IMG/VR virus record: IMGVR_UViG_3300035698_017111
Location: 32,001 to 96,000 of that record
From: a virus
Length of the DNA stretch: 64,000 nucleotides
Strand: one strand, 5' to 3'
A program made the position numbers and the translations under genes. Numbering within the stretch: position 1 is the first letter of the stretch; each line of letters starts with the position of its first letter. Of this stretch, positions 1,673-60,266 are shown in pieces. The notes below the pieces were generated by a model. The model saw nothing but the letters and a program-made list of their open reading frames with translations, did not search any database and was not told the origin of the DNA.

Positions 1673-4054
1673 ATGAATTTCGAAGACATCCTTAGCCCAA
1701 AACTGAAAATGATCTTGCGTGACAAAGCTTTTGTTTCGGCAATTAAACTTGGTCACAATGGGGTTTGGCCACAAGATCTTATCCTTTGTATTCTTGGAGA
1801 GGCAGAAAGTCTTTCTGATAATATTTTAGGACTATTGAATGTTGATGTACCCGAATTGTACAACGGCATATCAAATGTATCTGTGCTAAAAGACGAAGAC
1901 AAAATAGACGAAACAAAAATTCACGATAGCACAAAAGAGATTCTCCGTCTTTCTAAAGAAGAATCTATTAATTTGGGGCATCCATACATTGGTACCGAAC
2001 ACGTTATTCTATCGTTCCTTTCCTATGGTGGCAATGTCGCACACATTAGAGAGATTAAATCTCTTTTAGAAAAATATGGAATCACTAAGAGAGATTTCAA
2101 AATGGGGATTATTGCTGCAATGAGTAGTAGCAATGTCGGCCGGAAGAAAAAAACCTCTGAAGAAAAGGAGAAAGCTATCGCTGAAGACGGATCAAGTGGT
2201 AGTGGTAGAAGGACAAGAAAAGAAAAACAAACAACACTTGAACAGACATTGAAGAAGGAATCATACATAGAGAATGTAAATGAAAAGGTTGCCAAAAGAA
2301 AAGAATCTTTCATTGGTCGAACCAAAGAAATAGAAAGATGCATTCAGGTTCTTTGTCGTAAAAAGAAAAGAAATCCAATCGTTGTTGGTGAATCTGGTGT
2401 TGGTAAAACCGCACTGATCGAGGGTCTGGCACAAAGAATTAACTCTGGCGATGTTCCAGGTAAAATAAAGGGAGCTCAGATTTACTCTGTTAATCTTGGG
2501 AATGTTGTTGCTGGTACAAAATATAGAGGACAGTTTGAAGAAAGAATGAAGTCTATTATCTCGTTCTTTGAAATTAAGAAAAAGAATCCTCAAATCATTT
2601 TTATTGACGAGATACACACCCTTATCAACGCTGGAAATGCAGAAGGTGCATTGGATGCTAGTTCTATACTCAAACCAAAATTATCTTCTGATGTATTTCA
2701 ATGTATCGGTACGACGACATACGAAGACTATAGAAAGTATATTCAAAGAGATGAAACTCTTTCTCGTAGATTTACTTCTGTGTTTTTGGAAGAACCGTCC
2801 ACCGAAGACACTGTCAAGATTCTTCGTGGCATTAAATCAGAATATGAAAACTACCACGGGATTAATATCGATGATAACTCCATTAAGACAATAACCGATC
2901 TTTGTGATAAATATATTAAAAACAGATTCTTCCCAGACAAAGCCATTGATATTCTTGATGAGTCTTGTGTTAAATCAGTTTTGGAGACACACAATAAGAG
3001 TAAGACTGGGGTAAAGAATCTTCTGTTGGAAGAGACAATCCTTGAGGTTATTTCAGATTCTACTGGTATTCCTGTTGCGACAATGTCTCAGGACGAAAAA
3101 AAGACACTTGGGAACATTAAAAAAGAGATGTCTAAGGTTGTCATTGGCCAGACAAAAGCAATAGATGTTGTTTGTGATGCACTTCAGAGATCACGCATTG
3201 GGTTTAAGGATGCCAATAGGACAATGGGGGTGTTTTTGTTCTTGGGTCCAACAGGTACTGGTAAGACTCTTTTGGCTCAAAGTATTTCTCAAAAATTATT
3301 TGGATCGAATAAGATAGTTCGACTCGATATGTCGGAATATATGGAAAAACATTCTATATCTAAGATTATTGGAAGCCCACCCGGATATATTGGTCATGAT
3401 GATGGTGGACAGCTTACCGAACAGATACGGAAAAAACCATACTCTGTAATTCTCCTTGATGAAATAGAAAAGGCTCATCGAGATGTTCTAAACATCTTCC
3501 TTCAGATATTTGATGAGGGTAGGCTTACAGATTCGCAAGGTAGACTGGCTGACTTTAGCAACTCTATTATCATAGCCACGTCTAATATTGCAGCAGCACA
3601 GATTGGCAAGAAAGCAAAGGGTATTTGCTTTCGTGTTCCAGACCATGTGCGACAACAGGATGACGTTGAGAAGTTTCTATTAGACGAAGTCCAGAATCAC
3701 TTTTCTCCTGAGTTTATTAACAGAATAGACGAAACACTTGTGTTTAACACATTCACCAAAAAAAATGTCAGGAAAATTATGGAGATAGAACTTGGCAAGG
3801 TGAAAGATAGGATTAAAAAAGCTGGCTACAATATTAGGGTGTCTCCGTCAGCCAAAACCTTTCTTTGTGAAAATGGATACTCAGAAGAATATGGTGCTAG
3901 ACCTATGGTTCGTGTTTTGAAGAAACACATTGAGAATCCGTTGGCTAATCAAATATTTGCAGACAAAATAGATAGCAATGCTATCGTATATATTAACTAC
4001 AGTAAGCCGAATACAGAGCTTACGTTAAGCCAAAAACAAGACGGAGGAAAATAA
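1673..4054 (+). CDS. clpC: ATP-dependent Clp protease ATPase subunit (ClpC/ClpA-like)
   Basis: Clp N repeats (YIGTEH), AAA1 GESGVGKT/IDEIH, AAA2 GPTGTGKT, DMSEYMEKH, GSPPGYIG. Confidence 0.92.
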   Translation: MNFEDILSPKLKMILRDKAFVSAIKLGHNGVWPQDLILCILGEAESLSDNILGLLNVDVPELYNGISNVSVLKDEDKIDETKIHDSTKEILRLSKEESINLGHPYIGTEHVILSFLSYGGNVAHIREIKSLLEKYGITKRDFKMGIIAAMSSSNVGRKKKTSEEKEKAIAEDGSSGSGRRTRKEKQTTLEQTLKKESYIENVNEKVAKRKESFIGRTKEIERCIQVLCRKKKRNPIVVGESGVGKTALIEGLAQRINSGDVPGKIKGAQIYSVNLGNVVAGTKYRGQFEERMKSIISFFEIKKKNPQIIFIDEIHTLINAGNAEGALDASSILKPKLSSDVFQCIGTTTYEDYRKYIQRDETLSRRFTSVFLEEPSTEDTVKILRGIKSEYENYHGINIDDNSIKTITDLCDKYIKNRFFPDKAIDILDESCVKSVLETHNKSKTGVKNLLLEETILEVISDSTGIPVATMSQDEKKTLGNIKKEMSKVVIGQTKAIDVVCDALQRSRIGFKDANRTMGVFLFLGPTGTGKTLLAQSISQKLFGSNKIVRLDMSEYMEKHSISKIIGSPPGYIGHDDGGQLTEQIRKKPYSVILLDEIEKAHRDVLNIFLQIFDEGRLTDSQGRLADFSNSIIIATSNIAAAQIGKKAKGICFRVPDHVRQQDDVEKFLLDEVQNHFSPEFINRIDETLVFNTFTKKNVRKIMEIELGKVKDRIKKAGYNIRVSPSAKTFLCENGYSEEYGARPMVRVLKKHIENPLANQIFADKIDSNAIVYINYSKPNTELTLSQKQDGGK

Positions 4055-31344: not shown

Positions 31345-32427
31345 ATGGATATGGACGGTAAAGAATACGTGGAATTGGATAAGAACCTGTGTGGTTCTCC
31401 CAGTGGCTCTATGGCTGCTTTTTTTGATATAAAAAAGAGAGATGGTAAGTTGTGGCTACCAAAAAATAAAGAAAAAGACTACAAGGATACCTGTGATGGA
31501 ATAGAAAAAGATCTTAAAGAAAGCACATCGTGTAATTGGTATCGTACTGCTAGTGAATTTGTTGGTTCAGATGCCAATTTTCCCAACAGTGGACACGTTT
31601 ACGATGCGAAAGGTCTTAATCAAGGACAACCATTAAGTCCCACAATGACAAGTCTTAGTTTGCCAGATATGGCTGAAGTCCCAAATAAAGAGAACAAATA
31701 TAGTGATGTTCCTAACTTTTGTCCATCTTGCAAATCGCCAATTGAAGATTTTGAAGTTCAAAAAGGCAGAAGAGATGATGATGGTAATCTTGTCTATAGG
31801 TGCAATAACTGTGGACATACTAATGATCAATATCATAGAACTGTAGAGAGAAGTAAATCAAGATCTCCAAAATCTAGAGTTAGAAAAAGAAGAAAAATAG
31901 CCTCTGTTAAAAGTGTTATTCATGAAGCTGCCACTCCAGCAACTCCTCAGCCTGGTGGTGGTTATGGTAACAATCCAGCAAACACTCCATATGGCCGTGT
32001 AGATTTATCGGAAGAACAGAGAGTTATTCCTTGGGAATTGATGCAGGATGGATTTGCTAATGAGTTTGACACAAATAAACAGAAAAACAATAAGAAATTT
32101 AAAGTTGTTAAAGTTAAAGGTAAAGATGGTAAGCCACAATTTATGCGGGTTAGGGTCATGAATCCTGCTGGCAATGGTGTTTCTCCAGCAAACACAACAA
32201 CTCAGAAGGGTAGGGTAAAGAAACAAAGAAGATACAATCCAGATGATGGTGGTCCTGGTAAGAGTAAAGGTGCTTGGCCACATAATAGAAATATTGGAAC
32301 CGAGGGTTGGTATCAAAGCCATTGGTCTCAAAACCAAGATGCTGATATGAGAAACCGTGTAACCACATGGCATGATTATGTGAATGATAGAGGAACTAAT
32401 TTCATGGGTATATCGAAACCGCTTTAA
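31345..32427 (+). CDS. hypothetical protein with Zn ribbon
   Basis: CPSC...CNNC; NWYRTAS motif. Confidence 0.65.
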   Translation: MDMDGKEYVELDKNLCGSPSGSMAAFFDIKKRDGKLWLPKNKEKDYKDTCDGIEKDLKESTSCNWYRTASEFVGSDANFPNSGHVYDAKGLNQGQPLSPTMTSLSLPDMAEVPNKENKYSDVPNFCPSCKSPIEDFEVQKGRRDDDGNLVYRCNNCGHTNDQYHRTVERSKSRSPKSRVRKRRKIASVKSVIHEAATPATPQPGGGYGNNPANTPYGRVDLSEEQRVIPWELMQDGFANEFDTNKQKNNKKFKVVKVKGKDGKPQFMRVRVMNPAGNGVSPANTTTQKGRVKKQRRYNPDDGGPGKSKGAWPHNRNIGTEGWYQSHWSQNQDADMRNRVTTWHDYVNDRGTNFMGISKPL

Positions 32428-53170: not shown

Positions 53171-53590
53171 ATGGTATTTAACCTGAAAGCAGAAAAGGGT
53201 AAGAAAGTATTCCTTGGTGGAACATGTAATGAATCTACCTGGAGAGATGATCTGATTCCAGATCTGGAAATCGATTTCTTTGACCCAGTTGTTGACGATT
53301 GGGATGACGCAGCATATAAGATAGAGTTGAAGGAAAGAGAAACATGTAATTTCTGCCTCTATGTTATTACGCCAAAAATGACTGGAGTCTATTCTATTGC
53401 TGAAGTTGTTGATGATTCGAACAAAAGACCAAAGAAGACCGTATTCTGTTTTCTGAAAAAAGATGGTGATAAAACGTTTGACAAAGGACAGGTCAAGTCG
53501 TTAGAGTCAGTACAGAAGATGGTTGTCGATAACGGTGGACAGTCTTTTGAGTCGTTGGAAGAAGTGGCCAAGCATCTAAACTCTCAGTAA
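53171..53590 (+). CDS. nucleoside 2-deoxyribosyltransferase-like protein
   Basis: VFLGGTC..STWR, FDPVV.DW, GVYSIAEV. Confidence 0.85.
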   Translation: MVFNLKAEKGKKVFLGGTCNESTWRDDLIPDLEIDFFDPVVDDWDDAAYKIELKERETCNFCLYVITPKMTGVYSIAEVVDDSNKRPKKTVFCFLKKDGDKTFDKGQVKSLESVQKMVVDNGGQSFESLEEVAKHLNSQ

Positions 53591-53693
53591 TTTTGGCCGA
53601 AAGATTTTTCTTGACTTGTAGTTCACTGTCGTATATAAAGAACTGTAGATTGAGTGAAGGAAAAAAAGTTACGGCCAAAAGAGGAATTAGTAC

Positions 53694-53722
53694 TTGACTT
53701 GCCGTATAGAAAGTGTTACACT
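53694..53722 (+). promoter_or_regulatory. sigma70 promoter for the RNA cluster
   Basis: TTGACT-17-TACACT with an extended TG. Confidence 0.7.
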
Positions 53723-53740
53723 CAATGAAGTAAAAGATTT

Positions 53741-53826
53741 AGCCAGAACTTGAAGCTGTTACAGCTTATGCAAAAAGCACTGCCCTCAATAAAGGGCGGT
53801 ACACAACAACTTCTAAGAACCTGGCT
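53741..53826 (+). ncRNA. Y RNA-like element 1 (reduced tRNA-like domain)
   Basis: AGCCAG/CTGGCT terminal stem, GAAC, inner stem GAAGCTGTT/AACAACTTC, TTACA, two hairpins. Confidence 0.55.
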
Positions 53827-53895
53827 TTAAAATTTATAGGAAGGGGCAGGAGATAGGGATGACAGGTAAAGGATAGAGTCCTCGGACTAAATTTT

Positions 53896-54015
53896 GACTG
53901 GAACGGATAGTCATTACAGTGATAGCTCATTTTGGTAGAGCATCGGCCTTCAACGCCGGTTGTTATAGGTTCAATTCCTATTCACCCAAACAAACTGACT
54001 CTCAATAATCCAGTC
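53896..54015 (+). ncRNA. Y RNA-like element 2 (YrlA-like tRNA mimic, anticodon TCA)
   Basis: GACTGGA/TCCAGTC and AGTCA/TGACT stems enclose a D arm, anticodon arm (loop CTTCAAC) and T arm GGTTCAATTCC; acceptor stem only 4 bp. Confidence 0.7.
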
Positions 54016-54056
54016 TATTAATTTTAAATAAAATAAAGAAAGAGAGAAACAAGCAA

Positions 54057-54260
54057 ATGGCAGACAAAACACCGAGTCAATTAGTTGTGTACGAGGGTGA
54101 AGACGAAGTACTTGTTACTACACTTGAAAATGAACACATTCTAATTCAAGAATTTTTCGAAGAAGGTGAAAGAGACAAAGAAGATTATGGACGAACTGTT
54201 ACAAATTTCGAATCTGTTGTCCATATCGAAACTGGTCTGTTGCAAGTTAGCACATGTTAA
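54057..54260 (+). CDS. hypothetical acidic protein
   Basis: 67-aa ORF between RNA elements. Confidence 0.5.
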   Translation: MADKTPSQLVVYEGEDEVLVTTLENEHILIQEFFEEGERDKEDYGRTVTNFESVVHIETGLLQVSTC

Positions 54261-54265
54261 AGGTT

Positions 54266-54393
54266 TTGCTAGGAACGGCACGTTGATACAGACAAAATAG
54301 CTCAGCTGGTAGAGCTGTTGGTATTCTAACCAATAGGCGTAGGTTCAATTCCTACTCTTGTCACCTTTACTCAACTGGTAATCACCCTAGCAA
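54266..54393 (+). ncRNA. Y RNA-like element 3 (tRNA mimic, atypical 8-nt anticodon loop)
   Basis: TTGCTAGG/CCTAGCAA and GTTGA/TCAAC stems enclose a cloverleaf at 54291-54363. Confidence 0.7.
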
Positions 54394-54400
54394 TTAAAAC

Positions 54401-54432
54401 AAGGCCCCTCAAACGAGGGGTCTTATTTTTTC
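54401..54432 (+). terminator. rho-independent terminator
   Basis: AAGGCCCCTC/GAGGGGTCTT stem plus T run. Confidence 0.8.
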
Positions 54433-54522
54433 TTTAAGTTTCTCAGCCAAAAGACTTGACATTGACCACACAATATGTTTAGATGAAATCTGTGGCAAGA
54501 CATAAAGGAAAGGAATACCACA

Positions 54523-56193
54523 ATGACTACAGCACTAGCACCAAAAACAAGTAAGATGGTTACTGATCTGACCGAGAGAGCTTCGATTCAGGTTCCAGAA
54601 AGCGTGGACACATGGTTGAAAACCGTGGATGTTGACACTGTCGCATCTATTGTGGATCGTTTCCTCGACGTTTGTACCACAGTCACTGGACGAGCCACCC
54701 ACTACAACTCCAAAGCCGATCAAGAAAGACTCATGGCAGGATTGCATACTGAGCTTTTCGACGTTGACCGTGGTATGTATGGTCTTCTAGTGTGCCTTGA
54801 GGGTGCAATGGATATCAGTAGACAAATGGCCATGTCCAGATTGCTTGATAATCCAAGAGAAGGTGAGGCTTTGCTTACAGTACATCAGGAAAATCAACTC
54901 ATCAGTCACCTTGCACTGAGCATGCCTCCACAAAGAATGTTGAAACTCTACAAGAAATTCGTAGAGCAAAAGGTCAACAACTCTCGTGCTCGTAAACTGA
55001 TCCTTCGAACGATTATTCAGCAACCAGTTGGAAGACTGGAGCATTGGGCGGTCATGTATCGTTCCAAGTTGGCTTCGGCAATCCGACATGCACTGGGACT
55101 CAAGTCCAGTTACGTTCTGGAGAAGACTCTTGAGAGGAAACTCTCCGGTAAGAGAATGTCTACAGACCAGAATAAAACTATTCGTAAACTTGTTGGTAAG
55201 TTTATGAAAGAGATCTACGATAACAATGATACCAAGAACAAAAAGTTGGAAATCATTGGCTTTATTCTCGGCATTGAAACCGGAATGGAATTGAAGAAAA
55301 CCAAGGCATATGTTGCTGTGAAGGAAGGAAATTTCGCAGCTGGTAAAGTTCTTCCTCTCGAAACAATGGAAGGTCTCAGAAGCGTTTACCACCCAAAGAA
55401 AACGGCCAAAGACATCCTTGAACTAACCAAGGATACTATGACCAAGGGTCAGAAGATGGTTCGACAGAGACAGGCCAAAGAAGTTGGTGTTAAGATTGAC
55501 CTAGATCCAAAGCAGTACGATCCTGTCAAACTTTACATCTACTGTTACGAGCAAGGTATCGATGGCCCAATCATGAAGGCTCTTGAAGAGAAGGCACAAA
55601 GTGCCGTTAAGAACCTCCCCCTTCGTTTTGGGAAGATTGGCATCCTGCTTGACAACTCAGCTTCGATGTTTGGCCACAAGACACAAGGAAACCGTCCAAT
55701 GGCAGTTGCCTTGTCGATTCGTGACTATCTGTCGGCAGCAGCCGATGAAGCAAATGTCGAACTCGTCAACAGACCTGCGAGATTGACAAAGAAGAGAAAA
55801 GCTCTTCCTCTTCCAGAGGGTGACACTTCTCTCGCACAAGCTCTCGTTCAAATGCTTAAAGAAAAGAACGAAGCTATCTTTGTTATCAGTGATGGTTATG
55901 AGAACGCTCCGGCCGGACGTTTTGCCGAAGTTCTCAAGTTGGCCAGACAGGTCGGTGTGAAGACACCAGTGTACCAGATCAGTCCTGTTGCAGCAGCAGA
56001 AGCATCAGGTATCAAACATCTGGCACCGGGGCTCGTTGAAGCTCTTCCAGTCTCGAACGCAAATAGCCTTGGAACAACATTGTTCAAGGCACTGTTGGTG
56101 GCACGTCCCAAAGAAGGACTTCGTGTTCTTATTGGAATGGGCATGAAACAGCTTGATAACATTAAGAAGATCGATTACGAAGGGAGAAAGTAA
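54523..56193 (+). CDS. Ro60/TROVE-like protein: helical N-domain plus C-terminal vWA
   Basis: MIDAS motif DNSAS, GDTSL, ISDG; about 370-aa helical N-part; adjacent to Y-like RNAs. Confidence 0.65.
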   Translation: MTTALAPKTSKMVTDLTERASIQVPESVDTWLKTVDVDTVASIVDRFLDVCTTVTGRATHYNSKADQERLMAGLHTELFDVDRGMYGLLVCLEGAMDISRQMAMSRLLDNPREGEALLTVHQENQLISHLALSMPPQRMLKLYKKFVEQKVNNSRARKLILRTIIQQPVGRLEHWAVMYRSKLASAIRHALGLKSSYVLEKTLERKLSGKRMSTDQNKTIRKLVGKFMKEIYDNNDTKNKKLEIIGFILGIETGMELKKTKAYVAVKEGNFAAGKVLPLETMEGLRSVYHPKKTAKDILELTKDTMTKGQKMVRQRQAKEVGVKIDLDPKQYDPVKLYIYCYEQGIDGPIMKALEEKAQSAVKNLPLRFGKIGILLDNSASMFGHKTQGNRPMAVALSIRDYLSAAADEANVELVNRPARLTKKRKALPLPEGDTSLAQALVQMLKEKNEAIFVISDGYENAPAGRFAEVLKLARQVGVKTPVYQISPVAAAEASGIKHLAPGLVEALPVSNANSLGTTLFKALLVARPKEGLRVLIGMGMKQLDNIKKIDYEGRK

Positions 56194-56195
56194 AA

Positions 56196-57257
56196 ATGGC
56201 TAAGACGACTACCAGCATCAGAGAGGTCCTGAGAGGGACCAAAACGGGTCGTATGCAGTCTGTGGGTAGAATGCAAGTCATTCCACTCATACTGGATATG
56301 CCCGAGGACAACAGGTTTACCTCACCAGAAATTCTCTGGATTAAGAACCGTGATTACGGTAGCATTAATCTAGACAACAGAGGTGATGTGACAACGATTG
56401 CACCAGTGGGTGCTACGTATCTCACCAAACAGTCAGCACAGGATCATGCCATCATGAATGCTGAGCTTGTTAAGGCAAAATCTGGAGTTGAAGTAGATAC
56501 GGCAGCTTGTGTCCAGTCAAGCCAAGGTGGAACTATTCGTAACGAGCAAACCGAACTCTTGATTCTGCCATATGCCCTTCGAGAAGCTTCGATTGGTATG
56601 AGAAAGACCAAGAGATACAATAAACTATGGGATGATATCGGCAAGTTCAACAAACTCGCTAAATGTGGATCTGGTAGCGAGCATCTCGAATACTTCGTAA
56701 AAACGCATGAGTCCACAATGGATGATTTCGTTGCACAGTTCGAGATCGTTCCTGGACAGGTCGGAGCAATTGTTCTGATTGATGGTGAAGTCTACGGAGT
56801 TGAAAGAGCACCTAACTGTCAGTACTGGGAAGGTGTCTGGTCTCCACTGATTCGTATGTGTTACGGATCGCAGGCTATCATCGCAGATCTTGAAGACAAG
56901 GCAAAGAAGGGTCCACGTACCAGTAACGCAATGCTAAATCCCCTTCCTTCTGATGTTGAGGATCTCGATGATATCGAGGAAGCCCTCAAGGAAGCAGACG
57001 AACAGTATTCTGAAGCTTCTATGGATGTTGTTCGCAACCTTCTGGACGATGAGTTCAAGAGAGAGGATGTCGCAAGACAATCTTTCCTCACTGACGAAAA
57101 GGAGACTGTGAATCTCGACAGAGTGACCGTAAGCAACGACCAGTTCGTTGGACAGGTCTTCCAAGACGGTCCTCAGGTTTGTTACGCATCAATGGTGACG
57201 AAGAAAGGCTGGAAGAAACATGCCAGCTGGAGAGCGGCACCGGCGTTTGATGCCTGA
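56196..57257 (+). CDS. ARPP-1/DUF6569-like protein
   Basis: AQDHA, ACVQSSQGG, FEIVPGQVGAIVLIDG..GVE pattern. Confidence 0.6.
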   Translation: MAKTTTSIREVLRGTKTGRMQSVGRMQVIPLILDMPEDNRFTSPEILWIKNRDYGSINLDNRGDVTTIAPVGATYLTKQSAQDHAIMNAELVKAKSGVEVDTAACVQSSQGGTIRNEQTELLILPYALREASIGMRKTKRYNKLWDDIGKFNKLAKCGSGSEHLEYFVKTHESTMDDFVAQFEIVPGQVGAIVLIDGEVYGVERAPNCQYWEGVWSPLIRMCYGSQAIIADLEDKAKKGPRTSNAMLNPLPSDVEDLDDIEEALKEADEQYSEASMDVVRNLLDDEFKREDVARQSFLTDEKETVNLDRVTVSNDQFVGQVFQDGPQVCYASMVTKKGWKKHASWRAAPAFDA

Positions 57258-59322: not shown

Positions 59323-60195
59323 TTACGATGTTGCTGTAACGTTAACCTTAGCGATTGCATAATCATTAATAACAATAATTCCTAATTCCTCATATATAAC
59401 CCACCCTAATCTAAGCTCTCTTGGGTTATCTGCGGGAAGGACGGTGATGTCCTGACGGACTGGGATTGCACCGACATACTCGGCTGGTGCAAGGAGATAC
59501 ACGCTACCAGGTGTGACCCTGTGCGAAACGTGGATATCTGCAGTCCAGATGTGTCCGAATAGACCACTCATAAGAACGTCACGTCTTGTTGCTTCGTCGA
59601 ACACATCACGTCCGAAAAGACGGACATCAGCATACTGCTGAGGATGCATAACGATTTTTGCAACGGTCAAGTCATGCGACTCGATTAGAGAGAAAGCATA
59701 ATTCAGTGATGCGACCTGAAGGTCACCCGACTGGGTGATTGTCTGATTTGTTCTAACTGCGGCGTTAATATCAGTAAGAATTTCAGTATCTTCCAGTTTT
59801 TGAATAGCTTCCTTTGCCTTCATTTGTGCCCTATCAACGATATAAAAACGACGGGCCTTGATCTCACTCAAACGGATCTGAGGATTGACAGCGATTTCAA
59901 ACGTGGGAACCAAGACTTCCTCACCTTCGGTGATTCTATCTGGGACTGCACCACGACGAGAGATAACGTATGCAACACTTGCAACGTCTTTCTCGTAGCG
60001 GGCGAGTGCCCCTTGGGGCAACTCGTCAACCATCAAAAGCTTACGTCCAATTGCCTGGTATTCCAATGCACGTTTGATTGGTTCTACCATGGCTTGAGCG
60101 AGAGCAACACGACCTTCCGGCGTCTCCAACGCTTGGGCGATGACAGCCTCACGCTGTTCATCAGTATAGTTGGATTTTAACATAGCCATTGTCAT
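59323..60195 (-). CDS. major capsid protein (HK97/encapsulin-like fold)
   Basis: LAQAMVEPI...GRKLLMVDELPQG, PTFEI, GWVIYEELG; AAGGAG RBS; position after scaffold and decoration genes. Confidence 0.85.
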   Translation of the reverse strand: MTMAMLKSNYTDEQREAVIAQALETPEGRVALAQAMVEPIKRALEYQAIGRKLLMVDELPQGALARYEKDVASVAYVISRRGAVPDRITEGEEVLVPTFEIAVNPQIRLSEIKARRFYIVDRAQMKAKEAIQKLEDTEILTDINAAVRTNQTITQSGDLQVASLNYAFSLIESHDLTVAKIVMHPQQYADVRLFGRDVFDEATRRDVLMSGLFGHIWTADIHVSHRVTPGSVYLLAPAEYVGAIPVRQDITVLPADNPRELRLGWVIYEELGIIVINDYAIAKVNVTATS

Positions 60196-60266
60196 AAGCT
60201 CCTTTTGTGTAAAATGTGAAAGTTTTTTTATACAGACCTTTCTATGATCTGTTTCAATCAACAAAC

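Follow-up and report, generated by a model that had tools for sequence, protein, structure and literature searches.

A probable Ro60/Y-RNA-type module in a phage genome, with a Ro60-fold protein, an ARPP-1 family protein and RNAs carrying tRNA-like cargo

The 64,000-nucleotide window analysed here, positions 32,001 to 96,000 of the IMG/VR virus record IMGVR_UViG_3300035698_017111 (146,772 bp, about 77% complete), contains at 53.69–57.26 kb a module of three structured RNA elements, a gene for a 556-aa protein with a predicted Ro60 fold and a gene for a 353-aa ARPP-1 family protein. The locus probably encodes a Ro60/Y-RNA-type ribonucleoprotein of a diverged and undescribed subfamily, in which the ring-shaped Ro-like protein would bind a constant stem-bulge-stem structure of the RNA, here called the handle, while the RNA displays a tRNA mimic and ARPP acts as the effector. 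A sequence-only reading of the stretch had proposed a divergent phage-encoded Ro–Y RNA particle with an ARPP partner, and the proposal is supported by the Ro60 fold of the protein model, by the covarying handle stems of an RNA family that is tied to the gene pair, and by the obligate presence of ARPP. All parts of the module are on the + strand in the order promoter-like site, three structured elements, terminator, 556-aa open reading frame (ORF) and 353-aa ORF, and every part that had been described was found at, or within a few bases of, the position first given to it (Table 1).

Table 1. Features of the module, in coordinates of the 64,000-nucleotide window
Feature	Position	Strand	Description
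Promoter-like site (candidate)	53694–53722	+	TTGACT, 17 nt, TACACT, TG extension; 9/12 consensus matches; upstream of the RNA array
Element 1	53738–53830	+	Handle alone: P1 AGCCAG/CTGGCT, GAAC bulge, P2, UUACAG; a 40-nt two-hairpin cargo replaces the tRNA core
Element 2	53893–54019	+	Handle and tRNA-like core at 53917–53988; ARAGORN, Rfam, model R1
67-aa ORF, putative	54057–54260	+	Between elements 2 and 3; from the ORF listing
Element 3	54265–54395	+	Handle and tRNA-like core at 54291–54365; ARAGORN, Rfam, model R1
Intrinsic terminator	54401–54424	+	10-bp stem, 6 of its pairs GC, followed by a run of T; also delimited as 54401–54434; strong; closes the RNA array; terminator scan
Ro60-fold protein, 556 aa	54523–56193	+	Predicted HEAT-like helical ring about 26–362, vWA 369–510, C-terminal helix
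ARPP-1 family protein, 353 aa	56196–57257	+	Starts 3 nt after the stop codon of the Ro-like gene

The Ro60-fold protein

The AlphaFold model of the 556-aa protein, built on an alignment of 32 sequences, has a predicted local distance difference test score (pLDDT) of 86 and a predicted template modelling (TM) score of 0.82, and consists of a helical part (residues 14–362) followed by a von Willebrand factor A (vWA) domain, as expected from the helical region and the DxSxS motif noted earlier. When the model was compared with the PDB by Foldseek, all 12 hits with E ≤ 0.001 were Ro60 structures, namely Xenopus and human Ro60, Deinococcus radiodurans Rsr and the Ro60 of Thermus phage phiLo (E 3.5e-7, TM 0.52). 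VIA-align superimposes it on Ro60 with Z 15.5–16 and a root-mean-square deviation of 4.8–5.2 Å, with 410–420 aligned residues over positions 42–528; phiLo Ro60 is among the top matches (Z 15.8–16), and the rows that come after Ro60 match the vWA domain alone with Z ≤ 11.5. The full-length matches are to Ro60/TROVE rings only, in agreement with the TROVE-like ring that had been proposed for the N-terminal domain. In the ESM Atlas and BFVD the clusters nearest to it that have a name are called “TROVE domain-containing” and “Ro-like RNA binding protein”, with Atlas TM values of 0.63–0.74 to the TROVE clusters. According to the model the 556-aa protein thus has the Ro60 fold.

The MIDAS (metal ion-dependent adhesion site) of the vWA domain is complete, with D377, S379 and S381 (DxSxS), T435 and D457 invariant in the 32 sequences, and in the model these residues are placed after strand 1, before helix 437–446 and after strand 451–455. 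Pfam gives only sub-threshold vWA matches, and searches with the protein and its profile against the sequences of the PDB gave nothing useful, nor did PHROGs. The protein is named here as Ro60-fold and not as a TROVE family member because homology to TROVE was not demonstrated at the sequence level. Genuine TROVE genes are present elsewhere in the same bacterial genomes that carry the Ro-like gene, indicating that the Ro-like proteins are a separate family and not the Ro orthologue of those organisms. One such case is Minicystis rosea, where a canonical TROVE/Ro60 gene (L154, chromosome 8,256,807–8,257,850) is located about 4 kb upstream of the Ro-like gene (L108) within the same tRNA-rich island; it scores 125 bits, or 151 bits together with a neighbouring segment in the same frame.

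The ARPP partner and the distribution of the gene pair

The 353-aa protein, which had been called ARPP-like, matches Pfam PF20208 (ARPP-1) with E 8.5e-25 and 88.1 bits against a cut-off of 27, over profile positions 4–287 of 297. Residues that are invariant among 37 sequences include Q21, Q82, H84 and C105, and they fit the “enzyme-like” reading of ARPP given by Iyer et al. 2022 (PMC9503650). The AlphaFold2 model has a pLDDT of 90, and neither a search against PDB sequences nor PHROGs gave a useful match.

The association of the two genes was followed in 150 loci, 80 of them viral and recovered with the Ro-like profile, and 70 from bacterial and archaeal genomes. ARPP lies directly downstream of the Ro-like gene in 77 of the 80 viral loci, the other three being cut by the contig end, and, among the 70 bacterial and archaeal loci, in all those where the contig continues, so that the partner proposed earlier is present in every locus that is not truncated. 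In an all-against-all clustering of the 2,296 ORFs from the 150 loci only the Ro-like protein and ARPP were conserved (149 and 139 loci, respectively), and no further conserved partner, such as RtcB, an ADP-ribosylglycohydrolase (ARG), polynucleotide phosphorylase (PNPase) or a nuclease, was found by this clustering; the next clusters are antisense shadow ORFs or lineage-specific phage genes (DnaB, antirepressor, 5'-3' exonuclease, GroEL). The Ro-like/ARPP gene pair is obligate.

The particle had been put forward as phage-encoded, and it is encoded in a phage here, but it is not specific to phages, as the carriers include chromosomes of Pirellulaceae, Polyangiales, Streptomycetaceae (Embleya/Yinghuangia) and Saprospiraceae. 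Among GenBank phages there was a single match, the unannotated 462-kb uncultured phage LR756500.1, and no cultured phage carries the module. The module is often situated in the tRNA gene arrays of big phages and of myxobacterial and planctomycete islands, for example among 37 tRNAs in locus L006.

The three RNA elements

All three elements upstream of the Ro-like gene share one scaffold, which consists of a terminal stem, a GAAC bulge, an inner stem, a UACAG junction, the cargo and the closing strands, and each folds with a closing terminal stem (z -4.2, -2.8 and -2.3 for elements 1, 2 and 3). A common architecture with a tRNA-like domain in every element had been described earlier; the scaffold holds for all three, but the tRNA-like domain is found in two of them only, element 1 having a short non-tRNA insert. 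Elements 2 and 3 score 51.9 and 59.7 bits with the Rfam tRNA model (gathering score 29), the match of element 2 covering model positions 4–67 only, and element 1 gives no match. The two cores are the sole tRNA-like sequences in the entire phage record.

In element 2 the anticodon loop is CU-UCA-AC and the acceptor stem has just 4 bp (GUGA/UCAC), followed by CCA. Element 3 has an acceptor stem of 7 bp with one mismatch and an anticodon loop of 8 nt (UAUUCUAA), which ARAGORN calls abnormal. The covariance model R1, described below, matches elements 2 and 3 over its full length with 97.6 and 86.3 bits (E 2e-27 and 4e-24). With element 1 only the scaffold positions are aligned, around a 40-nt insert (17.1 bits, local E 3.7e-4), and this element belongs to a short, YrlB-like class.

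A conserved handle in the homologous RNAs

In most viral loci the Ro-like gene is preceded, at a distance of a few hundred bases and on its own strand, by a tRNA-like gene that ARAGORN detects. The anticodons of these tRNA-like genes differ widely, and their flanks pair strongly, with a G[AG]AC sequence 13–25 nt upstream. A MAFFT alignment of 22 homologous elements (A2) was the source of model R1, and RNAalifold applied to this alignment independently recovers the two handle stems P1 and P2 together with three tRNA arms. In A2, 90.5% of the cells are paired compared to about 42% when the partners are slid, and every P2 pair has a compensatory change; P1 is biased in this alignment since the sequence ends were picked by P1 complementarity, which does not apply to P2. 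Among 93 distinct homologues, in an alignment that leans towards R1 because it was fitted to that model, 94.3% of the cells are paired (P1 97%, P2 87%) compared to about 40% when slid, and in each of the 32 pairs both partners show changes. Both handle stems therefore covary strongly, which is the behaviour that the proposal of a structured Ro-binding RNA had called for in the flanking stems.

Ordinary tRNAs in whole genomes reach 55–72 bits with R1 in alignments that count as “full-length”, and for this reason only hits of at least 75 bits were regarded as specific. Full-length hits of 75–116 bits are located upstream of the Ro-like gene and on its strand in 44 of 61 viral and 23 of 58 bacterial loci, with weaker handle matches in most of the others, and they extend to distant relatives (25–29% protein identity) and to bacterial chromosomes. 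In four whole bacterial genomes of 7.8–16 Mb the single best R1 hit (76–95 bits) adjoins the Ro-like gene, whereas ordinary tRNAs stay at or below about 72 bits.

On the 5' side of the handle P1 ends in G-R-G, and is followed by the bulge R-A-C-Y-N-G and by P2, which ends in G-U-Y-A-U paired to A-U-R-A-C; the junction is U-W-C-A-G, with the U and the G at 100%. After the cargo come an A-rich linker, P2', the 3' loop C-A-A-M-Y-U-N-Y and P1'. Within the bulge stretch G-R-A-C-Y-N-G, A10 is conserved to 99% and G8 to 90%, and the stretch bears only a resemblance to the CGAA motif of Y RNAs. The handle sequence is kept across phages, planctomycetes, myxobacteria and Bacteroidota, and this conservation points to recognition of the site by a protein.

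tRNA mimicry and alternative cargo

The nucleotides of the tertiary tRNA fold (U8, A14, G18, G19, T54, T55, C56 and A58) are each conserved to at least 92% throughout the family, and in the anticodon loop U33 is conserved to 84% and R37 to 97%. In contrast to this conserved frame, the 87 anticodon loops of seven nucleotides contain 39 different triplets, and A34 is found in 16 of them. Contiguous acceptor pairing is mostly 1–6 bp across the family, and about 3–4 bp in the Pirellulaceae forms. A 7-bp acceptor stem combined with a 7-nt anticodon loop is found in neither core of this phage, element 2 having 4 bp and element 3 an 8-nt loop. Because the acceptor stem is usually so short and the anticodon hypervariable, the tRNA-like cargo is predicted to be a mimic and not a working tRNA.

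The opposite explanation takes the elements for real tRNA genes, which might be stop-codon suppressors, with an unusual base-paired leader and trailer. Their RNAs would decode on the ribosome after RNase P and 3' processing, and the Ro-like protein and ARPP would form a dedicated maturation or quality-control factor. Several observations would agree with this: both cores score above the Rfam tRNA gathering score and are not accompanied by any other tRNA in the phage record, element 2 has a canonical 7-nt loop whose UCA on paper reads UGA, element 3 has the 7-bp acceptor stem, the L-shape nucleotides as well as U33 and R37 are conserved family-wide, some relatives have an acceptor stem of 6–7 bp with CCA, and RNase P cleaves even the YrlA of Mycobacterium smegmatis, to which CCA is added as well (PMC4201824). 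On the other hand, the acceptor stem of element 2, like those of most family members, is short, the loop of element 3 has one nucleotide too many, and the triplets, with their many A34, look unconstrained. Of the seven UCA loops, five belong to loci that are nearly identical, so that stop-reading anticodons are not clearly enriched. The same handle also bears non-tRNA, reduced or circularly permuted cargo that would be unable to decode, and taken together we consider it improbable that these are genuine tRNAs.

Reduced cargo, without the D arm or the acceptor, is found in elements of planctomycete and actinobacterial loci. In two Pirellulaceae loci (L087:3194–3690 and L146:100–502) full elements of about 121 nt alternate in tandem with reduced ones of about 90–100 nt, which lack the D arm and the acceptor, upstream of the Ro-like gene, an arrangement reminiscent of YrlA/YrlB pairs. 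In five Embleya/Yinghuangia loci (L117, L121, L123, L125 and L130, at about 3760–3960) P2 of the handle directly replaces the acceptor stem and the D hairpin is shortened; a gene for a GroEL-type chaperonin recurs just upstream in the same loci.

The closest relative (L002), with a Ro-like protein 49% identical to that of the phage, has a third handle at L002:4455–4625 with P1 UUGACCGG/CCGGUCAA, a GGACU bulge and a UUACCG junction. The cargo on this handle has the order T arm, closed acceptor stem-loop and D arm, which is the circularly permuted arrangement of YrlA, and the Rfam YrlA model matches the element with 34.9 bits (local E 2e-6), below the gathering score and in the tRNA-like module only. 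Unpermuted and YrlA-type cargo are thus present on the same handle within a single locus, and the permuted core ties the handle family to the classical Y RNAs.

Proposed mechanism

In the particle that we regard as the likely product of the locus, the small RNAs would be transcribed as an array and each would close into a handle formed by P1, an asymmetric internal loop (5' G-R-A-C, 3' C-A-A-M-Y-U), P2 ending in GUYAU/AURAC and the UWCAG junction. Judging by analogy from Y RNAs, the ring of the Ro-like protein should dock on this stem-bulge-stem structure. The cargo displayed on the handle would be exchangeable and in most cases an L-shaped tRNA mimic whose anticodon loop has the canonical shape but a free triplet, and the mimic might be shown to factors that recognize tRNA. 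The intact MIDAS site of the vWA domain probably holds a protein ligand, and the first candidate for it is ARPP, which is always co-encoded and is putatively a Cys/His/Gln enzyme. The particle could thereby bring ARPP and the ring to tRNA-binding factors or to damaged tRNAs, and since the module is often embedded in tRNA arrays and the anticodons are free, a role in tRNA surveillance, in repair or in decoying of tRNA-targeting enzymes during phage–host conflict is suggested. The Ro60 fold, the obligate gene pair, the covarying RNA family tied to this pair and the mimic-like features of the cargo are observed here; binding between RNA and protein, docking of ARPP on the MIDAS and the biological role are what we infer.

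Several results weigh against a Ro60/Y-RNA-type particle. The Pfam TROVE profile (PF05731) has no match in the phage protein, nor in 32 members of the family at E ≤ 1, and when the family profile was compared by hhalign with two single genuine TROVE ORFs only the vWA part was aligned, weakly and with low probability. An Infernal search with the Rfam YrlA model (RF02553) had been suggested as a check; the best score on the phage stretch was 15.2 bits (E 5.6) against a gathering score of 69, and the RNAs are not members of that family. The GRAC sequence of the handle is neither CGAA nor GNCGAAN0-1G, and Ro-type recognition of the handle is for this reason an analogy. Those relatives that combine a longer acceptor stem with CCA could be processed to tRNA-sized molecules. 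Finally, no usable structural relative of ARPP was found in the PDB, the best Foldseek E being 0.04 and the best Z of a wide VIA search 4.5, for a helical hairpin only, although this does not show that the ARPP fold is new.

A more specific version of the mechanism, which we put forward tentatively and hold to be rather less likely than not to be the right one, is a programmable tRNA-bait particle acting in phage–host conflict. In such a particle the constant handle would sit on the Ro-type ring and the interchangeable mimics, with anticodon loops of canonical shape and freely diversifying sequence, would bait or sense enzymes directed at the anticodon loop, a different one for each RNA; these might be anticodon nucleases, ADP-ribosyltransferases that modify RNA, or modification enzymes. 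ARPP, seated at the MIDAS of the vWA domain, would represent an enzyme of a new type, and its substrate would be RNA that has been captured or damaged, for instance a ribose adduct. If true, this would be a previously unrecognised RNA-guided surveillance or counter-defence system common to huge phages and bacterial tRNA-array islands.

Two other explanations of the RNA elements fit the data poorly. The elements might be cis-acting leaders that regulate the Ro-like and ARPP genes at the level of transcription, as an attenuator or as a T-box-like sensor for the state of tRNA, and are not trans-acting partners of the proteins. In nearly all loci they precede the genes on the shared strand, and in this phage a terminator separates the array from the genes, both of which would suit such leaders. 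However, the copies, two to four per array, differ from one another and lie at anything from about 150 nt to more than 3 kb from the gene, some copies are located downstream of ARPP (for example at 8105 in L020), an ORF of 67 aa lies within the array of this phage, and the terminator is a simple hairpin for which no alternative pairing with the elements is evident, which makes cis regulation very unlikely. Least probable of all is that the stem-flanked units are DNA-level features such as mobile-element ends, attachment sites or repeats resembling miniature inverted-repeat transposable elements that travel along with tRNA arrays, the flank pairing being a DNA inverted repeat, as might be suspected from the frequent location within tRNA arrays and from tRNA genes being classic integration targets, because the pairing is maintained by G-U pairs and compensatory changes typical of RNA, the unpaired motifs GRAC and UWCAG are asymmetric and conserved, the strand is strictly that of the operon, and the bacterial genomes have one specific copy each, beside the gene pair.

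Other features of the locus

A σ70 promoter had been placed ahead of the RNA array, and a site with 9/12 matches to the consensus is present, but promoter-like sites are no commoner in the region than in shuffled sequences (9 compared to 6.7 ± 2.5), and the site is therefore a candidate only. The terminator expected after the array was found by the terminator scan. The putative 67-aa product has no Pfam or PHROG match and no tblastn counterpart in 80 related loci, and judging from these searches it is not a conserved part of the module.

Three boxes on the + strand, at 53586–53610, 53672–53700 and 54443–54462, have the sequence GCC[GA]AAAGA followed after 1–13 nt by CTTGAC, and precede the RNA array and the Ro-like gene; the first two also constitute an inverted repeat, UUGGCCG ... 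CGGCCAA. The boxes may be a phage-specific promoter or operator motif. Directly upstream of the RNA array is a gene for a 139-aa nucleoside 2-deoxyribosyltransferase-like protein (53171–53590, + strand; PF15891, 4e-10), which is not conserved with the module. A gene for a major head protein (phrog_2522, 7.5e-69) is located about 2 kb downstream on the opposite strand (59323–60264, − strand), and the module is thus at the edge of a structural gene block.

Significance

Ro60/Y-RNA particles are conserved from bacteria to humans. The same three-part module in about 150 phage and bacterial loci appears to constitute an undescribed Ro60/Y-RNA branch, and would mean that a large branch of Ro60-fold proteins (32 members were checked) escapes the TROVE profile. 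The branch is characterized by a complete, unpermuted tRNA mimic with a hypervariable anticodon, by several kinds of cargo on one handle, and by ARPP, which is always present. It would offer a compact three-part system for asking what the tRNA-like arm of a Y RNA recruits, give ARPP its first concrete context, and connect particles of the Ro type with the tRNA arrays that huge phages carry and with phage–host conflict centred on tRNA. Since cultured carriers are available (Rhodopirellula baltica SH28, Stieleria magnilauensis TBK1r, Minicystis rosea DSM 24000 and Embleya scabrispora), the module is directly testable.

Comparison with known systems

No description of the module was found in literature searches, whose coverage did not extend to most subscription journals. 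In known Y RNAs the 5' and 3' ends form a stem with a bulge (CGAA, or GNCGAAN0-1G) that is the Ro60 site, and a second module serves effectors (PMC4201824, PMC12135203). For YrlA this effector module is a permuted tRNA whose acceptor stem is closed and which lacks an anticodon loop (10.1101/312249), and the Ro-binding stem extends from the anticodon stem (PMC4201824, 10.1101/312249). Bacterial Ro60 (Rsr) is known together with YrlA or YrlB from the rsr-yrlBA-rtcBA locus of Salmonella, from M. smegmatis and from mycobacteriophages (Chen et al. 2014, PMC4201824; Wang et al. 2018, bioRxiv 10.1101/312249). As in these systems, the gene for a protein with a ring and a vWA domain adjoins one or more small RNAs in the phage module, the two ends of the RNA pair in a stem with a bulge, tRNA mimicry with conserved D and T arms is found at the opposite end, and a long tRNA-like RNA is found together with a shorter second RNA; the permuted core on one handle of the closest relative is likewise of the YrlA type. 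Unlike Rsr, the Ro-like protein is not detected by the TROVE hidden Markov model, and the partner gene is ARPP, whereas Rsr loci may contain RtcB/RtcA. Unlike YrlA, most elements are unpermuted, with the order D arm, anticodon arm and T arm, the handle extends the acceptor end, and there is a full anticodon arm with a hypervariable triplet. The handle motif GNCGAAN0-1G of YrlA also has a different counterpart here, namely GRAC and UWCAG.

The wiring of the RNAs is closest to that of Yrn1 from D. radiodurans, where the Ro-binding end stem replaces the acceptor stem and a hairpin like an anticodon arm is located between the D-like and T arms (PMC4201824). In Yrn1, however, the D arm is weak, the loop has 6 nt and a variable region is absent, whereas the cloverleaf described here passes the Rfam tRNA threshold. 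The D. radiodurans machine of Rsr, Yrn1 and PNPase (RYPER, PMC12135203) differs in its partner, as no link to PNPase is evident in the present module and ARPP is the conserved partner. The Ro60 of Thermus phage phiLo (PDB 9KOP, 9L5Y; PMC12135203) is another phage protein of the Ro60 fold with two Y-like stem-bulge-stem RNAs (Yrl1 and Yrl2) just upstream. In contrast to the protein described here it is a recognisable TROVE protein that lacks an ARPP partner and has been shown to recruit the PNPase of the host, and its Yrl RNAs, which carry CGAA, have not been presented as complete mimics of tRNA (PMC12135203).

For ARPP, Iyer et al. 2022 (PMC9503650) describe contexts with ARG, HIRAN, WYL and deacetylase genes. 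The protein of the present module belongs to the same Pfam family, ARPP-1, with the conserved Cys and Gln that they note, and they report a vWA gene in some of the ARG-centred neighbourhoods. In the 150 loci studied here no ARG, rhodanese-phosphatase, HIRAN, WYL or deacetylase gene is conserved. The word TROVE is absent from their paper, and the ARPP and vWA passages that were consulted do not mention a tRNA-like RNA.

By analogy with these systems, the module should work like a Ro60/Y-RNA particle, but one whose protein belongs by sequence to another family, whose handle motif and RNA topology also differ, and which has a new obligate partner, and because of these four differences we place it as Ro60/Y-RNA-like yet distinct.

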